Shown one piece after another: positions 2,966-33,647 of a stretch of 64,000 nt of DNA. A program made the position numbers and the translations under genes. Position 1 is the stretch's first letter; every line of letters begins with the position of its first letter. The stretch is from a virus: IMG/VR virus record IMGVR_UViG_3300029106_000003, positions 1,317-65,316 of that record; one strand, given 5' to 3'. The notes under the pieces were generated by a model. The model made no database searches and was not told where the DNA came from. It worked only from the letters and a program-made list of their open reading frames with translations.

Positions 2966-3355
2966 TTATATCAAGAAACCCAGTCCTTTCAATTTTGTTA
3001 TCCATTTCACGATGTAAGGGAAGAGCAGCAAGACAATGCCACCGAGAGCCCACCAGCACCATCGGGGAGTCTTGTACTTTACTACCTCGACGGGGTATGG
3101 TACTTGTATGCTTTCCGTCTTGGATATATACAGCGTATCGGTTCTGTCCTTGAACCTATATATGTACTTGTATTGGAACTCCCGTATCGTGTCTCCCGAT
3201 TTCTCGATGAAAACACTGTCCCGCATGTATATGGAATCGAGCTGCACACGATTCAGATACACCGTGTCGCTCTTTGTCGTTTCCACAGGAACATACACAT
3301 GTCTGGTACAACTCGTCGCAGCCAAAAACAACAATAGGAATACGATATGTCTCAT
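2966..3355 (-). CDS. lipoprotein with C-terminal transmembrane helix (unimolecular spanin candidate)
   Basis: Signal peptide plus lipobox MRHIVFLLLFLAATSC; C-terminal TM WCWWALGGIVLLLFPYIV; ATGA start/stop overlap with upstream endolysin. Confidence 0.45.
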   Translation of the reverse strand: MRHIVFLLLFLAATSCTRHVYVPVETTKSDTVYLNRVQLDSIYMRDSVFIEKSGDTIREFQYKYIYRFKDRTDTLYISKTESIQVPYPVEVVKYKTPRWCWWALGGIVLLLFPYIVKWITKLKGLGFLI

Positions 3356-3750
3356 AGGCTCAGTATTTGTTTCCGGTTCTTCGATGTCGACACATAAGAC
3401 ACGTGCACCCAACTGTAATTGCTCTCGTCAATCAACTGGTCGAAGGGAAGGTTATCCCGAATCAACTCGAACAGCTTCTTGTTCTCCGTCTTGCTCCCTG
3501 CCGTTATATCCGCCGCCTCGCCCCTCATGTGCTGGCTCGTTTTCGCACCACCCACAGCGGCATTGAGTTTGGAACAACGATAGCCCGAATTGACGGTTAT
3601 CGCCTTCCCGTACATCTCCCGCAGTGGGTCTAAAACATGGGTGACAAGGTTCGACAACTGGGCCGACACTTCGGTCGTCGGGGTATTGTCTATACCCAGT
3701 TTATCGGCCGTTGAACTCTTTGTGAGTTCTTTCATCGTGAAGTATTTCAT
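3352..3750 (-). CDS. peptidase M15 family (D-Ala-D-Ala carboxypeptidase-like) endolysin
   Basis: NSGYRCSKLNAAVGGAKTSQHMRGEAADI matches Zn-dependent M15/DUF882 peptidoglycan hydrolase motifs (H..D, SxH). Confidence 0.7.
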   Translation of the reverse strand: MKYFTMKELTKSSTADKLGIDNTPTTEVSAQLSNLVTHVLDPLREMYGKAITVNSGYRCSKLNAAVGGAKTSQHMRGEAADITAGSKTENKKLFELIRDNLPFDQLIDESNYSWVHVSYVSTSKNRKQILSL

Positions 3751-4031
3751 ATCTCGAAGATTAAGTTTTCCATGTTGTTAATTCTGTCCGGCTCAGATAC
3801 GAGCAAATCCTCTTCCGGAAATTTTTCTTGAAATTCTTTCCATAACAGATACTCCATTTCCATGTATTCTTCACTGCCTCTTCTTATGCTTTCAGGAGAG
3901 ACCTCCACGATATGGAAGTTGGTCTGTATGTCGTAGGCATACCTGATACTTATTCCCGGTATTTTCGAGGCAATCGATTGAATCGTCTCGATGACAAAAT
4001 CCTGTACATTCTTATTCATGTCTTTCTTCAT
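3747..4031 (-). CDS. hypothetical protein
   Basis: ORF 3747..4070; probable start MKKDMNKN at 4031 because a terminator hairpin overlaps the longer ORF; ATGA overlap with endolysin start. Confidence 0.4.
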   Translation of the reverse strand: MKKDMNKNVQDFVIETIQSIASKIPGISIRYAYDIQTNFHIVEVSPESIRRGSEEYMEMEYLLWKEFQEKFPEEDLLVSEPDRINNMENLIFEI

Positions 4032-4040
4032 TTTTGGCGA

Positions 4041-4075
4041 CAAAAAAAGCGGTGACTTTTTTAGAATCACCGCTT
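4041..4075 (-). terminator. rho-independent terminator
   Basis: Minus-strand hairpin AAGCGGTGA(11-nt loop)TCACCGCTT followed by U7. Confidence 0.55.
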
Positions 4076-4156
4076 GTAACGAATGTATGAGAGAGTAGCC
4101 TTAGGGTTAGGCTTATCCGTTATTGAAAATGGGACAAACGTAGGCCGAAGGCATTA

Positions 4157-4348
4157 TCAATCCTCTCTCCTCAATTCATCGAGCCATTGTACTGGGTTGA
4201 CATCTTTTAGACGAGGATAAGCCTTTTCGATTAAAGAATTTAAATAACTTTCATCGAATTTTGGAGAATAATCAGCCGGTATCGGAGGTTTAGAATCCGT
4301 ATCGGACGAGTTCTGGACATAGGGGAATGAACCTTTTGTATCCATGTG
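4157..4348 (-). CDS. small hypothetical protein (third gene of PanA module)
   Basis: ORF 4157..4540 overlaps neighbour in another frame; likely real start MDTKGSF at 4348. Confidence 0.3.
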   Translation of the reverse strand, partial: HMDTKGSFPYVQNSSDTDSKPPIPADYSPKFDESYLNSLIEKAYPRLKDVNPVQWLDELRRED

Positions 4349-4356
4349 AACAATGT

Positions 4357-4704
4357 TTATTTTTTTCGGTTCGGGAAAATACCCTTTAATACGATATTGG
4401 CTAAACCTAATACATTGATAGTTGTCGTAGCCAGTAGAGATATCAATATTTCCGGTCCCAATGAAAATAATCCGATCCCGCAAAATACAAGAATGGCAAT
4501 TACTATGAATAACCATATGGGGATAATCCACATGACCCATCTGGCCAAATGTTTACGAAATTGTGTATCTTGTGAATATCGCTCCCGTATTTGTTCGGAT
4601 AAATTCTTGTCGTCTATATCGCCCAAATTTGAGTCGGGAGAAATATGGACACCATTCTCACTACGTAAATCCAAGCCGCTAAAAGAATCTTTCTGTTTAG
4701 TCAT
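4357..4704 (-). CDS. small two-TM membrane protein (candidate PanT toxin)
   Basis: 115 aa; hydrophobic helices WVMWIIPIWLFIVIAILVFCGIGLF and ILISLLATTTINVLGLANIVL; start overlaps stop of Panacea gene (ATGA). Confidence 0.5.
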   Translation of the reverse strand: MTKQKDSFSGLDLRSENGVHISPDSNLGDIDDKNLSEQIRERYSQDTQFRKHLARWVMWIIPIWLFIVIAILVFCGIGLFSLGPEILISLLATTTINVLGLANIVLKGIFPNRKK

Positions 4705-5213
4705 GCTTTGGGAGAAATTAGTGTCTTAAAATACTCTTGGATATAACTATCCGGGATTCTATCCCCCCAGCTGAATGAAGGCTGCTTAACGGTCCTATCC
4801 CACGGAGAACCGGGCTTGTGAGACCATTCCGTCAGATAGGCGGCAGTTTTAGAACCATAGCTGCCAAAGACCAGTTTCATCAGAGATTCCATTTCGGAAT
4901 CACGGGCTATTTTTTCAAGGTTTTCATCAGAAAGGGAAATTTCTGAAAAATCCTTTTTTATCAATTTATTTCGAGTGGTCGGGAAAACCGGACCATACGG
5001 CCAAGCCTGAGGGTGCTCGTTTGTCAAGCGTTCGTTCTTTACGTAAAGATATACTCCATAAGCTATATACAACAACTTTTGAAGCTTAGTCATGTTAATG
5101 AAAAACTTATTCTGGTTAGCAAACGCAATGATATAGTTTGCAACCGTAACGCTATCGTATTTATAGGTATCGCTTATCATCTTGTTGCAAAGTAACAAAA
5201 AATATCGTAACAT
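4701..5213 (-). CDS. Panacea domain (DUF4065, SocA/GepA-like) antitoxin-type protein
   Basis: VANYIIAFANQNKFFINMTKLQKLLYIAYGVYL ... PQAWPYGPVFP typical of DUF4065/Panacea. Confidence 0.7.
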   Translation of the reverse strand: MLRYFLLLCNKMISDTYKYDSVTVANYIIAFANQNKFFINMTKLQKLLYIAYGVYLYVKNERLTNEHPQAWPYGPVFPTTRNKLIKKDFSEISLSDENLEKIARDSEMESLMKLVFGSYGSKTAAYLTEWSHKPGSPWDRTVKQPSFSWGDRIPDSYIQEYFKTLISPKA

Positions 5214-5313
5214 GCAACCAATTCTTATACTTTTTTACGATAAATCAAACGGTGATTCCAAGAAGTCAAAGAACGCTTTCCCGTCGCCGGGTTATAAAAA
5301 TTCATTTTTTTCG

Positions 5314-5583
5314 TCAGGCAATCCAAACTTCGATTTGAATCACCAGCCCGCCCAGTATGGTCGCCAGCAAGTCGGCATACGACCAAGCCCCCGGCTTCTT
5401 CCACTCGTCGGCAGCCTCCTTGATACAGCCCGCTATGGCAGAGAACAGCACACAATATTCCGCCGTCGCACCTATCACGATGGCGAAGAAAGAGGCGATG
5501 ACACCTCCTGCGATAAAATGCAGCAGCTTGTCGTGGGGAATAGACAATAACAACCCTTTGATTCTCTCCAAAATTTTCTTCAT
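5314..5583 (-). CDS. small two-TM membrane protein (holin-like candidate)
   Basis: 89 aa; two hydrophobic helices, charged C-terminus. Confidence 0.4.
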   Translation of the reverse strand: MKKILERIKGLLLSIPHDKLLHFIAGGVIASFFAIVIGATAEYCVLFSAIAGCIKEAADEWKKPGAWSYADLLATILGGLVIQIEVWIA

Positions 5584-6191: not shown

Positions 6192-6578
6192 TCAATGTTT
6201 CTGTTTTTCGATTAACAATCTAGCTTCTCCTTTGCAGGATTCCGCATAGGCGTTATAAGCCTCGAACTCCTCTGCTTTCGTATCTCTTTGCCGAAGTATC
6301 GCCAACTCCTCCGACAATGTATATTTCCGACGAATCAATCCGTTTACCGTTTCTCCGTAGTCTATTTGGGCAGGTGGTGTTCCCGTGTCGTCCTCCGTCG
6401 CTTCCGGTGCTTCCTCGTACTCATAGACTATCGCCCCGTTCCGGTAATACATCACGGGTATTTTTCCGGGTATCTCCTCGGGAGATGGGATAGAATCTAT
6501 TCGTATGAATCCTTCTATCAGGGTTTCGCCATAATAAATATTAGTGACTCTTTCGTCGTATATTTTAATTTGTATCAT
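6192..6578 (-). CDS. hypothetical protein
   Basis: 128-aa ORF, overlapping start/stop with neighbours. Confidence 0.4.
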   Translation of the reverse strand: MIQIKIYDERVTNIYYGETLIEGFIRIDSIPSPEEIPGKIPVMYYRNGAIVYEYEEAPEATEDDTGTPPAQIDYGETVNGLIRRKYTLSEELAILRQRDTKAEEFEAYNAYAESCKGEARLLIEKQKH

Positions 6579-8142
6579 ATCTGCTTACGTCTTCAATTAT
6601 TAAAACATTACCTTTTGTGGTGCTATAAACAAAGTTTTTATAATTTGTTTGACGCCATATATTGTTTTGCGAAACTATATCTGCATCTACCCCTCTAAAA
6701 GTTGAATTTAATATTCCATAAGGGTATCTGAAAACATACTTTCCATTATGTGTAAATGCTACTGTTAATCTGTCATCTACATTTATACAATACCCATATT
6801 CCTGCACATTGCCTATATCCCCAAAATTATAACTTGTTGTATTATTTTTATTTGATATATTACTCATATGGCAAATCATATTGCCATTTGAAAAAACATA
6901 TAGTAAGTTTATATTTCCTCCCAAATTTGGAAATGTAAGTTTTTCAAAAGTTAAATCTTCAAGATTTACTTTATACCCATCTTTTGTAAAGGCTATACCA
7001 TCTGTTATTTTTATGTACTTATAATCATAGGCTTTATTTGTAACTAAATTCCCATCAGCATCATACACATATATATGTGGTTTATCATATCTATGAAAGT
7101 AATATACTTTATTATCATAAGCATATACAGCCCCATAATATTTAAGTCCTTCGGGGTTGTCAAGATATTTACCTTCACTTGTTTCTTCATCATACATATA
7201 GACAATATTTACAAACCAACAAATTGCAAAAAATATTTTATTGCCTATTTTACAAAGCACATTTCTCATTACACCAGACTCCACCCTGTTAGATGTATTA
7301 GAAATGTTTACAGTGTATATCTTTTTGAAATATAAATCTGTCTTTGTGAAATTATTTGTAGTTATAATATAATACCCAGTATCATCAAATCTATAAACCC
7401 CTGTAACACTTGATCCAAATTCTGACAAATCAATACATCTTTGAATTGATATTGTACCATCTTCTTGACCGCTAAAAGGCACAAACTCCCCATTCTTATA
7501 CACATAAGAGTGCAAAGTCTCGCCGTCAATGTATATTTTATTCGGGTTGGTCTCGCCACTTGCTTCAATAGCATCGTAGTTTTCATAGACCTCTGATGCC
7601 TTTCCTTCGAGAGCTGTCACACGACCATCTACATTTTGAGCCGCTTGTGTCGCTTTATCGGCTGCCTCATTAGCGAGAGTTGCCGAGTTGTTAGCTTCCG
7701 TTGCGGCATTCTCCGCATTTCCTGCCGCTGTGTTGGCGTTCGATGTGGCTGTGTTTGTATCGGAAATAAGCCCTTCGAGCGTAGTTTGCATTTGGGAAAA
7801 ACTCGTCTCTCTTAGAACTTCCGCTTCGGCTCTATCACTCTCTGCCGAGGCACGGCCGCTTTCAGCCGATTCCCGTTTCGCTTCTTCTGCCGTCAATCTG
7901 TCGCCGAGAGCCTCTATATCCGTGGCCGCCTTGTTTGCCTTTTCAGCCGCTTGATTGGCAACTGCCGCCGCCTCTGTCGCAGGGCGTTGAAGCTCGGCGA
8001 TTTGCTCCGGCGTAAAATCGTCGTAGGTAAAAGGGTCTCCCTTGTCACCTTTTTCACCGGGCAAGGCAACCATTTCCTCCACCACGGCGGCATCGGGCAC
8101 TACCACCTGCTCATGAACAATTATGCAATCACTATCTGCCAT
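6565..8142 (-). CDS. tail fibre protein with collagen-like triplets and coiled-coil shaft
   Basis: GEKGDKGDP collagen-like repeats, A/E/N-rich heptad region, Tyr/Asn-rich beta-rich C-terminal domain; C-terminal 1 kb is markedly AT-rich. Confidence 0.6.
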   Translation of the reverse strand: MADSDCIIVHEQVVVPDAAVVEEMVALPGEKGDKGDPFTYDDFTPEQIAELQRPATEAAAVANQAAEKANKAATDIEALGDRLTAEEAKRESAESGRASAESDRAEAEVLRETSFSQMQTTLEGLISDTNTATSNANTAAGNAENAATEANNSATLANEAADKATQAAQNVDGRVTALEGKASEVYENYDAIEASGETNPNKIYIDGETLHSYVYKNGEFVPFSGQEDGTISIQRCIDLSEFGSSVTGVYRFDDTGYYIITTNNFTKTDLYFKKIYTVNISNTSNRVESGVMRNVLCKIGNKIFFAICWFVNIVYMYDEETSEGKYLDNPEGLKYYGAVYAYDNKVYYFHRYDKPHIYVYDADGNLVTNKAYDYKYIKITDGIAFTKDGYKVNLEDLTFEKLTFPNLGGNINLLYVFSNGNMICHMSNISNKNNTTSYNFGDIGNVQEYGYCINVDDRLTVAFTHNGKYVFRYPYGILNSTFRGVDADIVSQNNIWRQTNYKNFVYSTTKGNVLIIEDVSRYDTN

Positions 8143-18422: not shown

Positions 18423-19583
18423 ATGGATTTCAAAGATACAATTCAACAGATTGTAGAGAAAATTGCTAAACAGAAGGATAGCATAGCAACGGAAGAAGCG
18501 ACAAAAAACTCTTTTGTAATGCCTGTGATAGCAGCATTGGGATATGATGTATTCAATCCCTTTGAGGTTGTACCGGAAATGGATTGTGACTTAGTTAAGA
18601 GGAAAGGCGAAAAAATAGACTATGCCATAATGAAGGACGAAAATCCTATACTACTTATAGAATGCAAGCATTGTAAACAAAACTTGAATTTACATGACAC
18701 TCAATTACAAAGATATTTTGTCGCTTCAAAGGCTAGGTTTGGGGTCTTGACGAATGGAATAGAATATCGCTTTTATACAGATTTAGAAAAGGTGAACATA
18801 ATGGACGAAAAGCCGTTCCTTGTGGTGAATATGCTCGATTTATCGGACAACGATATTGAGCAACTAAAAAAGTTTCATAAGTCTTATTATAATGAGCAAG
18901 ATATATTGAGCACGGCACAAGAGTTACAAATCACGATACAAGTAAAAGAAATGCTTAATCGTAATTTCCAAATGCCGGACGATGAATTTACACGTTATTT
19001 TGTCCGTAATCTTAATGATGGGAAATATACGGCAAAACTTGTGGATCAATATAGACCTATTGTTAAGAAATCCATTGCTTTGGTGATTAACGATATTATA
19101 TCCGACCGTTTAAATGTGGCTATGAAGAATGAGAATAAGGAGGAAAAACAGATACCACAGGAGGTTGAGAATGAAAATCAACAGCCGAACGAAATGAATG
19201 AAGAAAAACTTCCCGATGGTGTAGTATTTCAAGACCGAGAAAAAGGTATAGTTACTACACAAGAGGAGATAGATGCCTATAACATCGTGCGTAGTATATT
19301 GAGGCAGTATGTAGATGTATCTCGTATTCAATATAACGACTACAAGACTTATTTTTCCGTGAACATAGATGGTAGTACATGGTGGTGGATTTGCCGCATT
19401 TATATAGGGAAACGGAGTAAAAAAATATGCTTGCCAAAGGATAACTACAAGACGAATGAATGGATTGACATTGAGACTATCGATGATATTTTTAATTATG
19501 CCGATGGTCTTAAAGAGGGTCTTGATTTGGCATTGAAAGAGGCGAATTATTGGCTTGCAAAGAAAAATGAATTAGAAAAATGA
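18423..19583 (+). CDS. PD-(D/E)xK nuclease, HsdR N-terminal-domain-like (moron)
   Basis: VMPVIAALGYDVFNPFE...KIDYAI...LLIECKHCK gives the D...ExK core of type I restriction R-subunit N-domain; antisense to surrounding tail genes; AT-rich. Confidence 0.55.
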   Translation: MDFKDTIQQIVEKIAKQKDSIATEEATKNSFVMPVIAALGYDVFNPFEVVPEMDCDLVKRKGEKIDYAIMKDENPILLIECKHCKQNLNLHDTQLQRYFVASKARFGVLTNGIEYRFYTDLEKVNIMDEKPFLVVNMLDLSDNDIEQLKKFHKSYYNEQDILSTAQELQITIQVKEMLNRNFQMPDDEFTRYFVRNLNDGKYTAKLVDQYRPIVKKSIALVINDIISDRLNVAMKNENKEEKQIPQEVENENQQPNEMNEEKLPDGVVFQDREKGIVTTQEEIDAYNIVRSILRQYVDVSRIQYNDYKTYFSVNIDGSTWWWICRIYIGKRSKKICLPKDNYKTNEWIDIETIDDIFNYADGLKEGLDLALKEANYWLAKKNELEK

Positions 19584-19609
19584 CAAACGTAACTAATACA
19601 AATTTTAGA

Positions 19610-20074
19610 ATTATGAGAAAGTTTTTGCTAATCATAGTTTGTGCTTTATCCATTACATCTTGCTCAGATAATGATCCTGAGATATTATCAGTAATGATTA
19701 ATGTAAAATGTGATAATAAAATTGCATCTCCTTCTTTGGTTCGCTTATATGAATATGAAACAGCAAGAGACTTTGATGACAGCTATATGTCTACAATGGA
19801 GTACGGCGATTCTCAAGTTTTAAGAGATAAGTTGGGTAATGAGTTGACTCCCGCATATACATCTGACACGTTTTCTGGAATAAATATTTTTGAGGATATA
19901 AAAACAGGGGTATATTTGGCTGTAATACTTTATAAACCTGACGGCTTTACATGGCCTATGTTTTATTTTTATGGATATAAAGTAATTAATGTTGACGAGG
20001 ATAATAACGCACTTTTACATAATATATGTTTTTCTTATAGTGAATACGACCGAGGTAAATTCATTGAGTTTTAG
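19610..20074 (+). CDS. lipoprotein (moron; superinfection-exclusion candidate)
   Basis: MRKFLLIIVCALSITSC signal peptide plus lipobox; ORF track 19580..20074. Confidence 0.5.
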   Translation: MMRKFLLIIVCALSITSCSDNDPEILSVMINVKCDNKIASPSLVRLYEYETARDFDDSYMSTMEYGDSQVLRDKLGNELTPAYTSDTFSGINIFEDIKTGVYLAVILYKPDGFTWPMFYFYGYKVINVDEDNNALLHNICFSYSEYDRGKFIEF

Positions 20075-20787: not shown

Positions 20788-20929
20788 GCAAAATAAATTA
20801 TATTGAGCGCAACTGTGGGGTCGAACCACAACTTTATACATGGAGTGTATATGTGCTACCGTTACACTAGATACGCAGAACACGTGGGTACGAAGCCCCC
20901 ACGTTTGGCTCTATCTACAACCTATTGAA

Positions 20930-29376: not shown

Positions 29377-31464
29377 TTACTCCTTTCTAGGTTCGTTACC
29401 ATATTTCTGTACAAATGCTTTTAAAATCTCATCTAAATTTCCACGAATACCTGAATCTTGAATATAGTGAAGTTTACCAACGCATCTTTCATGTAACTTG
29501 AATACTCCCCGATACTTCATACTTACGGGCTTATCAGTAAACACAGAAGTGGCAATTATACCACATTCATGCTTGTATCTTATATTCAATTCCTCTTTAA
29601 ATTCAGTTGAAAGCACACCTGTAATAAGTAATCTGCTTAGCTTTGGTATAGTATGGTCTATCACAAAATCTGACTTCATCCAAACTGCATCCATGCCGTA
29701 TTTGCTGACTTTTAAGAAATCAAACATACAAGCTCCAAATACGTAATTATCTAAGAACCATAAATAGCAGAATGGAGCCGAGCCTAATACTATACCTTTC
29801 TTCAAATATATCATACGTAGATAATCTATCTCTGACATAGAAGCACGCATAAAACGAAATTTGCTATTTTCAGAAATGGAATAATCATCTGGTAAACGTT
29901 TGTACTTTAATGGAGTAATAGCACGTTTATTAAAACTGCTATCACCAGTACTACTTACATTGGAATAAATATAAGTTCTCTGGTCTTTGAATACCTCTCT
30001 GCGTCCCATGAAACCATGTTGCGACAATGCCATGTAATTCACCTGCTCTTCATCTATCTCAGAATATTTTGTACGGATTCTTTCTTGCCAACCGAAATCA
30101 TTCAACAAGAAGCGTTGTAAAGCATTGCTTGTAGCTTTCATACCGGAATGAAACTCATTCTGATAAATCAAAATATCATTTTCATTGCAATTAAGTATAG
30201 CATCCGAAATATCAGCACAATACAGAACTTCAATGTTCTTTGATTTCAGATTATCAACGAGTTTCTGATAACGTTCTGTGTATTTCTTCTTGTAGTAATC
30301 TAAACGGGACACGAAGTCATCATATAGTGACTTATGGTAAATATCCTGTGAGTTCTTATGCTTTTTTATGGCATTGAAAAGATGAATAACAGCTACCATT
30401 TCGGAAGGATTGTCCGACTGTAAATCCATGAAACTATACTCGTCGTTGAAACGTAGCTCTTTTATCTCTCCCTTAATAGCTTTATACATAAGATAGATAA
30501 AATACTCTTTCGTATATACCTTTATCTCACGGTTAGTAAGCACTTGTTCTATATCCATGTAGTATGAGTTTACCACATGGGCGACATCAAATCTTGAAGC
30601 CTCTTTTTTGATGAAAGAAAGCATCCGGTTTGACTTCTTGAACATAGAGCCTACTACCGTAACATTATCCGAGTGTTCTGCCGCCCAAAGTAGCGGTTTA
30701 TGTCTTTGGGGAACTTTGGAATAGTCAATATGAAACACCTCAAGACACTTATCAATTGTGGAGAGTTGCTTATACTCTTCTATATTTTCATGCAGGTAGG
30801 CATACTCTACAAATGAATACATGAATTTGATTGTCTCCAATACTTTATCAAAGTTCCATGAACTGTTGAAGATTCTGAACTCTGCCGTGCCAATCTTGGC
30901 AATGGAACATAAATTGAGCCAATACCTGATATGTCCCCTGTCTGAACCATTGTTGAATACTTTTAGTAGGTTGTCGATATTATCAGCTTCTAGCACACGT
31001 TTCACCACATCATATGGAGGGCTTGGCACGAGGTATTTTGTTTCCCACCACTCGGCTATATCGAATATCCGCTTGATTGGATATGCTGTATAGTAGGAAA
31101 GGACAAACATACGCTTGATAACATTCAAATCCATATCTTTGATATACAGATGTGCGTCAAAGCCTTCATTCCACATGAGGTAACTTCCTGCATCTTTCAT
31201 TGTTTTGATGAAGCCTTTCAACTCCTGTAAGTCTTCCACACAATAATGGTATGGACGAGTGTTTATCTCGCCACCAAATTGACCGTGGTGTGTGACAGCC
31301 GAACCGTCCGAGTTATTCATCATGGTTAGCTTGTTGTCCGTCCATTTATAACCGACTGGAAGGGAAATGCATTGTTTGTCTCCATCGGCAAACTCCAATT
31401 CCATGCCAAACGTGCGGTTGGCAATGTAATCAATCCACGGCTTATCTATATTCATGTTCTGCAT
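29377..31464 (-). CDS. large protein with amidoligase-like (GCS2/glutamine-synthetase-fold) N-terminal domain
   Basis: N-terminal RTFGMELEF (TxGxExE first strand of carboxylate-amine ligase fold), HH pair; about 400 aa of unassigned C-terminal sequence; overlaps neighbours at both ends. Confidence 0.4.
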   Translation of the reverse strand: MQNMNIDKPWIDYIANRTFGMELEFADGDKQCISLPVGYKWTDNKLTMMNNSDGSAVTHHGQFGGEINTRPYHYCVEDLQELKGFIKTMKDAGSYLMWNEGFDAHLYIKDMDLNVIKRMFVLSYYTAYPIKRIFDIAEWWETKYLVPSPPYDVVKRVLEADNIDNLLKVFNNGSDRGHIRYWLNLCSIAKIGTAEFRIFNSSWNFDKVLETIKFMYSFVEYAYLHENIEEYKQLSTIDKCLEVFHIDYSKVPQRHKPLLWAAEHSDNVTVVGSMFKKSNRMLSFIKKEASRFDVAHVVNSYYMDIEQVLTNREIKVYTKEYFIYLMYKAIKGEIKELRFNDEYSFMDLQSDNPSEMVAVIHLFNAIKKHKNSQDIYHKSLYDDFVSRLDYYKKKYTERYQKLVDNLKSKNIEVLYCADISDAILNCNENDILIYQNEFHSGMKATSNALQRFLLNDFGWQERIRTKYSEIDEEQVNYMALSQHGFMGRREVFKDQRTYIYSNVSSTGDSSFNKRAITPLKYKRLPDDYSISENSKFRFMRASMSEIDYLRMIYLKKGIVLGSAPFCYLWFLDNYVFGACMFDFLKVSKYGMDAVWMKSDFVIDHTIPKLSRLLITGVLSTEFKEELNIRYKHECGIIATSVFTDKPVSMKYRGVFKLHERCVGKLHYIQDSGIRGNLDEILKAFVQKYGNEPRKE

Positions 31465-33204: not shown

Positions 33205-33426
33205 ATTCTTGGGTTGTATATAACTTCATATACATTTTGTGTTAAATCTGCCGAGCGTATTCCCGGCAGACTTAAACACAAATTCAATCATTCTTCAAGC
33301 TACTTACAAGAACACTTATGCAATTCTTCGGCTTCTTTCAGTCGTGTCAGATAGCAATTTCTATCACCCCGTAAACTGCACAAGCTTTAATGTTCTTGCT
33401 TTTGCTTATCGCTACTATAAGGGTTG

Positions 33427-33496
33427 AGCGGAAACAGGGAATCGAACCCCACTCTTTGGTTGGAATGCCAACGCTCTGCCGATGAGCTATTTCCGC
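33427..33496 (-). tRNA. tRNA-like gene with atypical anticodon arm (TCC/TTC region; possible 8-nt loop)
   Basis: GCGGAAATAGCTCATCGGCAGAGCGTTGGCATTCCAACCAAAGAGTGGGGTTCGATTCCCTGTTTCCGCT: good acceptor, D and T arms (TTCGATT) but anticodon stem-loop cannot be folded as canonical 5-bp/7-nt. Confidence 0.5.
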
Positions 33497-33574
33497 AATA
33501 TGGGCAGCCTGCAAACCGTTTATCAGAATTTCCACTGCCCTTCCTTGTACTTCGGTCGTTATTTCTTATCTCTG

Positions 33575-33647
33575 AGGTTGAAGTGGGATTCAAACCCACG
33601 AATAACGGTTTTGCAGACCGTTGCGTTAATCACTTCGCCATTCAACC
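33575..33647 (-). tRNA. tRNA-Cys (GCA)
   Basis: GGTTGAATGGCGAAGTGATTAACGCAACGGTCTGCAAAACCGTTATTCGTGGGTTTGAATCCCACTTCAACCT: acceptor 7 bp, anticodon stem ACGGT/ACCGT, loop CTGCAAA, T-loop TTTGAAT. Confidence 0.7.

Follow-up and report, generated by a model that had tools for sequence, protein, structure and literature searches.

A probable PanAT-type cassette and its membrane protein family in the lysis region of a temperate Barnesiella intestinihominis phage

The stretch of viral DNA analyzed here (64,000 nucleotides, positions 1,317 to 65,316 of the IMG/VR record IMGVR_UViG_3300029106_000003, hereafter called the window) carries on its minus strand two overlapping genes. The first one encodes a stand-alone protein with a Panacea domain (PanA) and the second one a 115-residue protein with two transmembrane (TM) helices, considered here as a putative toxin (PanT). 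Our analysis indicates that these genes probably constitute a type II-like toxin-antitoxin cassette of the PanAT type, carried as a moron by a temperate phage of Barnesiella intestinihominis. PanA is identical to WP_306557783.1, which NCBI names 'Panacea domain-containing protein [Barnesiella intestinihominis]' and which is found on contigs of up to 3.25 Mb, and the membrane protein is identical to the public sequence DAQ57554.1. Since the exact proteins occur in B. intestinihominis, the element is a prophage of this gut species.

The stop codon of the PanA gene (TGA, 4701-4703) overlaps the start codon of the membrane gene (ATG, 4702-4704), so that the ATGA coupling announced by the original prediction is present. 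All 41 homologous loci with readable upstream DNA carry a Panacea gene directly upstream of the membrane gene, overlapping it or within 30 nt; these loci are L001-L015 and L017 (n = 16) and 25 divergent viral contigs, the four Escherichia coli loci reached through PanA DNA being left out of the count. Among the genome loci whose membrane gene was recovered by a hidden Markov model (HMM), PanA is upstream in nine out of ten (L008-L015 and L017, the latter from Erwinia); neither gene was recovered in L018, and in L016 PanA is upstream and the membrane match is cut by the end of the contig. The pairs were found in three unrelated phage contexts (capsid/portal, tail and replication regions). Furthermore, two single-chain proteins (P0154 and P0195), each representing a separate cluster at 50% identity, combine an N-terminal Panacea domain and, at the C-terminus, the membrane module of this family; they are the only such fusions among the top 150 representatives of the family. 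Relative to a diverged copy of the cassette (L108), the ratio of nonsynonymous to synonymous substitution rates (dN/dS) is 0.047 for the PanA gene and 0.055 for the membrane gene, which indicates that both genes are real and under purifying selection. Because of the upstream Panacea genes in 41 loci out of 41, of the natural fusions and of these dN/dS values close to 0.05, we conclude that the pairing of the two genes is not due to chance.

The assignment of the first gene to Panacea, for which an HMM search had been proposed as the refuting test, was corroborated by such a search: PanA matches Pfam SocA_Panacea (PF13274, the former DUF4065) with 52.7 bits (E = 9.8e-14; gathering cut-off 25.7), over model positions 1-112 of 113 and residues 44-138 of the protein, and the name given by NCBI agrees. 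PanA has a further match in phrog_1281 (7.6e-31), a phage family without assigned function. It remains below the cut-off of the NCBIfam SocA_antitoxin equivalog NF047745 (88.8 bits vs 190) and matched none of the PADLOC-DB 2.0 models. The motifs quoted by the original prediction (ANYIIAFANQNKF, LQKLLYIAYG and PQAWPYGPV) are all present in the open reading frame (ORF). The AlphaFold2 (AF2) model has a predicted local distance difference test score (pLDDT) of 85-95 over the Panacea domain and a low confidence for residues 7-14, and the homologues of PanA begin with MxxDxYKYNS at the position of Met12. Therefore, translation probably begins at the next ATG (5180), the second one of the ORF, giving a protein of 159 residues, and the annotated start at 5213, which is also that of NCBI, would be 11 codons too long. 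The domain and the motifs of the 170-residue protein initially described are thus retained and its length probably has to be revised. A second, diverged Panacea-like ORF was observed in another locus (L010, 3787-4368), downstream of the PanA-membrane pair.

The putative PanT begins with a charged, variable and acidic N-terminal region, followed by a conserved segment ending with RYSQDTQFRKHLARW and by two C-terminal hydrophobic helices. As the original prediction had stated, two TM helices are recognized: according to the hydropathy profile, they cover approximately residues 56-78 (TM1) and 86-106 (TM2). The region preceding TM1 has a net charge of +3 and the one following TM2 a net charge of +4; this positive charge on both flanks leads to a predicted N-in/C-in hairpin, with both termini in the cytoplasm. 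The conserved segment before TM1 includes D31, Q38, R42, Q45-D46-T47 and R50, and TM2 carries the motif LLATTTxNVLGLAxIVLKGIF. Homologues were gathered by a word-indexed search, by scanning 1.84 billion representatives with a profile and by searching genomes and viral contigs for patterns. At E ≤ 1e-3, the family comprises 2,527 clusters (50% identity), and a threshold of E ≤ 1e-10 leaves 591 of them, with a length of 100-130 residues in nearly all members. An alignment of 29 sequences (A1) contains 27 invariant columns, located (i) outside TM2 (D31, Q38, R42, Q45, T47, R50, W56, M58, W64 and V68) and (ii) in TM2 (L90, L91, A92, T93, T94, T95, N97, L99, G100, L101, A102, I104, V105, L106, K107, G108 and F110). 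In an alignment of 121 sequences (A2), R50, T93 and L106 are still invariant, and T94, T95, N97, G100 and F110 are conserved at more than 90%. The membrane module also follows other N-terminal regions, such as a DUF2786 domain in P0180 and about 110 coiled-coil-like residues in a protein of Erwinia rhapontici.

The membrane protein has no above-threshold match in Pfam, NCBIfam, PADLOC or PDB. A Foldseek comparison with PDB returned nothing under E = 1, and sequence searches of PDB returned nothing meaningful. No match was found by tblastn in the INPHARED phages, where the DNA search revealed an overlap limited to 600 bp, on the side of the endolysin. Three candidate relationships were rejected: (i) the PADLOC CARF_TM match is weak (E = 0.0036) and concerns only the TM tail of the model, and Chp1 (described in a preprint) has a different, four-helix architecture, (ii) Pfam DUF2975 and DUF6768 are below threshold, and (iii) the public label 'Sporulation protein YhaL' is unsupported by any library searched. 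The clade of the Barnesiella protein is almost wholly metagenomic, and cluster look-ups, made for 18 members of the family, led to no RefSeq accession that could be used and, for the Bacteroidales family, to no RefSeq accession of any kind. Judging from these sequence searches, the putative membrane toxin belongs to a very large family devoid of any database model. This family probably overlaps the published T3 and T12 clusters of membrane PanTs, beside which it was set by layout and description.

The genomic context of the cassette was examined in 80 related viral contigs (L031-L110) retrieved through a neighbouring 201-residue protein, on which eight proteins of the window and seven alternative cargo proteins (with domains assigned by Pfam) were mapped. 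The interval between the putative holin gene and the endolysin gene (3751-5313 in the window), which we call the slot, is spanned by 77 loci. Besides PanA and the membrane gene (n = 31), it contains a HEPN protein and a SecB-like protein (n = 11), the 94-residue backbone ORF alone (n = 8), a NYN-domain protein (n = 6), an IrrE/Peptidase_M78 protein and a DUF4411 protein (n = 5), a 262-residue unknown protein with or without a PIN protein (n = 4) or a short remnant (n = 2), and it is empty in ten loci, where the stop codon of the putative holin gene is 25-47 nt from the endolysin start. In total, 28 of the 77 phages carry other cargo in the slot. Since this slot is empty, occupied by the cassette or occupied by other cargo among related phages, the cassette is a moron and the slot a hotspot for cargo, whose other genes resemble toxin or defence genes. 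Furthermore, the PanA cassette is 99-100% identical at the protein level in phages whose 201-residue backbone protein shows only 68-83% identity, which indicates that it moves between backbones. The moron status put forward by the original prediction is thus confirmed by the empty sites, by the loci with other cargo, by the terminator that follows the cassette and by its base composition (GC content of 0.37-0.42 over 3800-5300 vs 0.45-0.55 in most flanking windows), which also bears out the AT-richness of the locus. As for its location, the cassette does lie in the structural/lysis region; rather than simply separating lysis genes from tail genes, as had been proposed, it interrupts the lysis genes themselves, with the putative holin gene on one side and the endolysin gene on the other.

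This location suggests that the membrane protein might be a lysis accessory, i.e. a second holin or an antiholin tuning the timing of lysis. Its size, its two-helix N-in/C-in layout, similar to that of class II holins, and the failure to find an independent promoter are in keeping with such a role, which we nevertheless regard as highly improbable: 46 of the 77 related phages are devoid of the membrane gene, including the ten with an empty slot, a terminator follows the cassette, and homologues located in capsid/portal, replication and tail regions or beside the repressor of an E. coli prophage are always found with PanA and never with lysis genes.

The limits of the insert do not depend on its cargo. 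A 5' boundary of 53 nt, containing a CCCG-GCGA-CGGG hairpin, is common to all cargo types, and a terminator-like hairpin, identical across all of them, invariably closes the filled slots on the 3' side. A 9-bp sequence, AAAAATGAA, is repeated, one copy lying just upstream of the 53-nt sequence (5301-5309) and the other one at the 3' end of the insert (4027-4035). Either this repeat or the 53-nt sequence could be a region of recombination homology or a specific site. The 3' untranslated region also contains an imperfect hairpin, which was found in L043 (where it is alone), in L031 (upstream of the NYN gene) and in L095; in L108, its pairing is kept through changes on both sides, as judged by eye and without statistics. 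The RNA fold of 4036-4160, terminator included, reaches -33.9 kcal/mol (z = -5.2), and an Rfam scan of 3900-5400 revealed nothing credible. In a broad and rather doubtful proposal, drawn from the constant 53-nt sequence, the terminator, the 9-bp repeat and, in some cargos, the hairpin, the holin-endolysin gap of these gut Bacteroidales prophages would be a dedicated exchange site where toxin or defence cassettes are shuffled by a specific mechanism rather than by plain homologous recombination, and the Panacea-linked module would be a portable membrane effector of the very large family described above, either free, fused to Panacea or fused to other domains.

The original prediction also mentioned a third small ORF and a terminator after the pair. 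Both are present; however, the ORF does not stand as a component of the pair. This 62-residue ORF is predicted as a gene by public gene callers in eight contigs out of eight and has no family match in Pfam, PADLOC, phrog or NCBIfam. Its first 24 residues are unique, and its last 38 residues (DYSPKFDESYLNSLIEKAYPRLKDVNPVQWLDELRRED) correspond to the C-terminus of the 262-residue cargo protein, with tblastn identities to the 3' end of the cargo gene of 92% in L095 and L096 and of 76% in L073 and L092. The diverged cassette of L108 lacks this ORF. Because of the match of its tail and of its absence from the L108 cassette, sequence comparison designates it as most likely a recombination scar, the PanA cassette having replaced the 5' part of the 262-residue gene.

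The Bacteroides promoter consensus is absent upstream of PanA, even with one mismatch allowed. The 262-residue cargo is also devoid of an exact consensus; an exact TTTG-N20-TAnnTTTG was found in the cargos encoding the NYN (L031), HEPN (L034) and IrrE (L046) proteins, about 100-135 nt past the stop codon of the putative holin gene. A sigma-70 promoter scan is uninformative for Bacteroidetes. Since the PanA cassette lacks a consensus promoter, its expression in the lysogen is assumed. According to a 2026 preprint, lysogens express the toxin-antitoxin genes of their Bacteroides prophages constitutively, which makes this assumption a reasonable one.

PanA/PanT systems were defined by Kurata et al. 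(2022, PNAS, PMC8832971), who validated nine pairs; three membrane PanTs were toxic, depolarised E. coli and were neutralised by their own PanA. Thereafter, Ernits et al. (PMC10440598) established that a stand-alone Panacea protein of Bartonella directly neutralises its membrane toxin. The predicted contacts of this PanA involve the N-terminal region of PanT and a short helix preceding its TM helices, and two mutations of the interface abolish rescue (PMC10440598). The best-conserved soluble segment of the Barnesiella membrane protein lies exactly before TM1, as in the Bartonella layout. By analogy with these pairs, we infer the toxicity, membrane depolarisation, direct binding, trigger and biological role of the Barnesiella pair. 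The 115-residue protein would form a hairpin in the inner membrane, its two ends facing the cytoplasm, and, when free, would assemble through the polar face of TM2 (Thr-Thr-Thr-x-Asn), depolarising or permeabilising the membrane. The cytoplasmic Panacea protein would be made first from the same transcript, translation of the toxin being coupled through ATGA, and would keep the toxin inactive by binding its cytoplasmic N-terminal region and the conserved helix before TM1. Loss, titration or triggering of PanA, for instance during infection by another phage or after loss of the prophage, would free the toxin and could lead to abortive infection or exclusion, and possibly to retention of the prophage.

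Several points weigh against this PanAT-type reading. Toxicity and neutralisation are deduced by analogy, and the likeness to validated PanTs comes from descriptions. In E. coli, no toxicity was found for several of the predicted PanTs, one membrane candidate among them (Kurata et al. supplement, PMC8832971). Neither protein has a convincing PADLOC model. An AF2 model of the joined proteins, computed from a shallow alignment made of the two natural fusions, is confident only on the Panacea domain; pLDDT is below 50 for the linker and the N-terminus of the toxin, and the model gives no interface information. Since no promoter was identified for it, the cassette might be expressed solely as part of late lysis transcription. 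Lastly, stable fusions fit a sensor and its effector better than a labile antitoxin.

The last point leads to the main rival explanation, which we consider unlikely but worth retaining. The two proteins would form a sensor-effector unit, in which the bound Panacea domain senses a phage or stress cue and switches the effector allosterically, as in the fused CapRel, with no turnover of an antitoxin. The NetFlax authors proposed a sensory role for Panacea and pointed out that dissociation is unnecessary in CapRel (PMC10440598); the single-chain proteins P0154 and P0195 and the defence-like cargo that fills the slot in related phages go in the same direction. However, direct neutralisation was found in the single stand-alone Panacea and membrane toxin pair that has been tested (PMC10440598). 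Furthermore, this unit has no known trigger, and the two fusions, which are so few among the top 150 representatives, may be sequencing frameshifts.

Small inner-membrane exclusion proteins are common in prophages. The membrane protein, which has no family annotation, could be one of them, excluding superinfecting phages or blocking injection, with PanA as its regulator or chaperone; in favour of this, some predicted PanTs are non-toxic in E. coli. We find this quite improbable, given that the strict and ancient pairing with Panacea and the ATGA overlap correspond to the architecture of validated PanAT pairs, that the conserved polar face of TM2 suggests self-assembly and that the alternative cargos of the slot are toxin-like enzymes. 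The PanAT-type cassette remains the explanation that we favour.

The features of the cassette and of its surroundings are listed in Table 1. The 89-residue protein shows only weak family matches, and its position and hydrophobic segments make it a putative holin. The 94-residue ORF belongs to the phage backbone; it is present or absent independently of the cassette, and its end overlaps the start of the endolysin gene. A putative spanin, designated from its sequence features, is kept downstream of the endolysin in related phages. In some prophage copies, a gene encoding a 263-residue HNH_3/HTH protein is located between the endolysin gene and the spanin-like gene (L024, 5412-6203; L030, 5413-6204).

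Table 1. Position of the PanA cassette, its boundaries and the neighbouring lysis genes in the window
Feature	Position	Strand	Basis
PanA, stand-alone Panacea-domain protein	4701-5213	minus	ORF of 170 residues; Pfam, phrog, NCBI identity
Putative PanT, 115 residues, two TM helices	4357-4704	minus	ATGA overlap with PanA, family alignments, topology
62-residue ORF, probable leftover	4157-4345	minus	3' end of the 262-residue cargo gene
Imperfect hairpin, 3' untranslated region	4098-4152	minus	RNA fold, common to other cargo cassettes
Intrinsic-terminator-like hairpin and T-run	4040-4075 (hairpin 4047-4075)	minus	11-bp stem, loop of 7
Constant 5' boundary, about 53 nt, TTTTTATAACCCGGCGACGGG...CACCGTTT	5247-5300	minus	Junctions of 14 representative loci
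89-residue membrane protein, putative holin, upstream edge of the slot	5314-5583	minus	Position, hydrophobic segments
94-residue ORF, phage backbone	3747-4031	minus	tblastn census; no family match (Pfam, phrog, NCBIfam)
Endolysin Peptidase_M15_3, downstream edge of the slot	3352-3750	minus	Pfam PF08291 (2.2e-24); phrog_894 endolysin (1e-40)
Spanin-like protein	2966-3355	minus	Lipobox-type N-terminus (LAATSC), C-terminal TM helix

Other features were observed in the window. The 3' half of the tail-fibre gene (6565-8142) has a GC content of 0.275 and is the most AT-rich stretch nearby; the length of the tail fibre varies from 417 to 525 residues among otherwise identical prophages, suggesting that host-range modules are swapped. 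A plus-strand island (18423-20074), located within minus-strand tail genes and beside a tRNA-Gly gene (20805-20876), is a second moron candidate and encodes a 386-residue protein with a type I restriction HSDR_N domain besides a 164-residue ORF. ARAGORN detected a tRNA-like gene (33426-33496) with an undetermined two-base anticodon, adjoining a tRNA-Cys gene (33574-33647). Lastly, a 695-residue protein (29377-31464) carries Amidoligase_2 and phage GNAT-like domains.

Human gut samples very commonly contain this prophage, and a sequence identical to its membrane protein is indexed in 1,457 sample blocks. An active cassette would therefore be a widespread factor determining, in a major gut commensal, how phages compete or whether the prophage is retained. 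The concept of PanAT was already known and is unchanged by this work, whose added value lies in the definition of a family, in the natural fusions and in the hotspot. The Panacea-linked membrane partner can now be defined by a conserved motif, a topology and an alignment, for thousands of sequences that had no database model. Furthermore, the slot is a plug-in site where Bacteroidales phages swap toxin-like cargo, which makes it convenient for mining new defence systems.

Among the known systems, the closest description is that of the PanAT clusters T3 (PanT of E. coli STEC O31) and T12 (PanT D11 of Bartonella apis/choladocola). As in these clusters, a stand-alone Panacea gene comes first and is followed by a small overlapping or adjacent partner, whose N-terminal region is charged and whose TM helices are C-terminal, and the pairs are carried by prophages and other mobile elements; the Barnesiella pair fits this description by its hydropathy, charge and gene order. 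T3 includes many Bacteroidetes, among which Parabacteroides merdae, in addition to E. coli, Yersinia and Erwiniaceae (PMC8832971). The Barnesiella clade differs in being mostly metagenomic, and it is likened to the validated WP_000019185.1 and WP_077993242.1 by description only. The E. coli relatives that we found (WP_060710354.1 and WP_001402904.1) are not the validated WP_000019185.1 and are missing from the table of Kurata et al. In E. coli lambdoid prophages, PanA is found with a two-helix protein of 127 or 128 residues, both being annotated only as 'hypothetical protein'. One of these pairs (strain S51, L019, 2501-3354) is located between the repressor gene and kil-gam-bet, and its profile comparison with the family gives a probability of 95.2% (E = 2.7e-8); another one (strain E41, L113, 601-1457) adjoins dinI and tail-fibre assembly genes.

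Two other partners, the PanT of Helicobacter (T4) and a 226-residue two-helix protein of E. rhapontici encoded 27 nt after a Panacea gene, also have C-terminal TM helices and an upstream PanA. The Erwinia protein matches the family profile by hhalign (98.8%, E = 8e-17) and shares the TM2 motif LITTTTINILGLAYIV with the Barnesiella protein. Both partners have a long coiled-coil N-terminal region, whereas in the Barnesiella protein the conserved segment is preceded by only some 30 variable residues.

SocAB from Caulobacter, a type VI system and the founding member of Panacea, belongs to the same domain family (Pfam SocA_Panacea). SocA is a ClpXP adaptor. The Barnesiella system differs from it by a PanA that falls below the SocA equivalog cut-off and by a partner that is a membrane protein and not a SocB-like clamp-binding toxin. 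CapRel combines a toxin and a neutralising or sensing domain in one chain, as P0154 and P0195 do for Panacea and the membrane module; in contrast, the window encodes two separate proteins, and the toxin of CapRel is tRNA-modifying and its sensor is not Panacea.

As regards the slot, defence hotspots were reportedly described in P2 and P4 phages by Rousset et al. in 2022. The slot resembles them by its fixed position in the backbone, by the many alternative toxin-like or defence-like cargos that are exchanged and by the existence of empty sites. It differs from them by its gut Bacteroidales host, by its position between the putative holin and the endolysin genes and by cargos that have in common a 5' end of about 53 nt and a 3' terminator.

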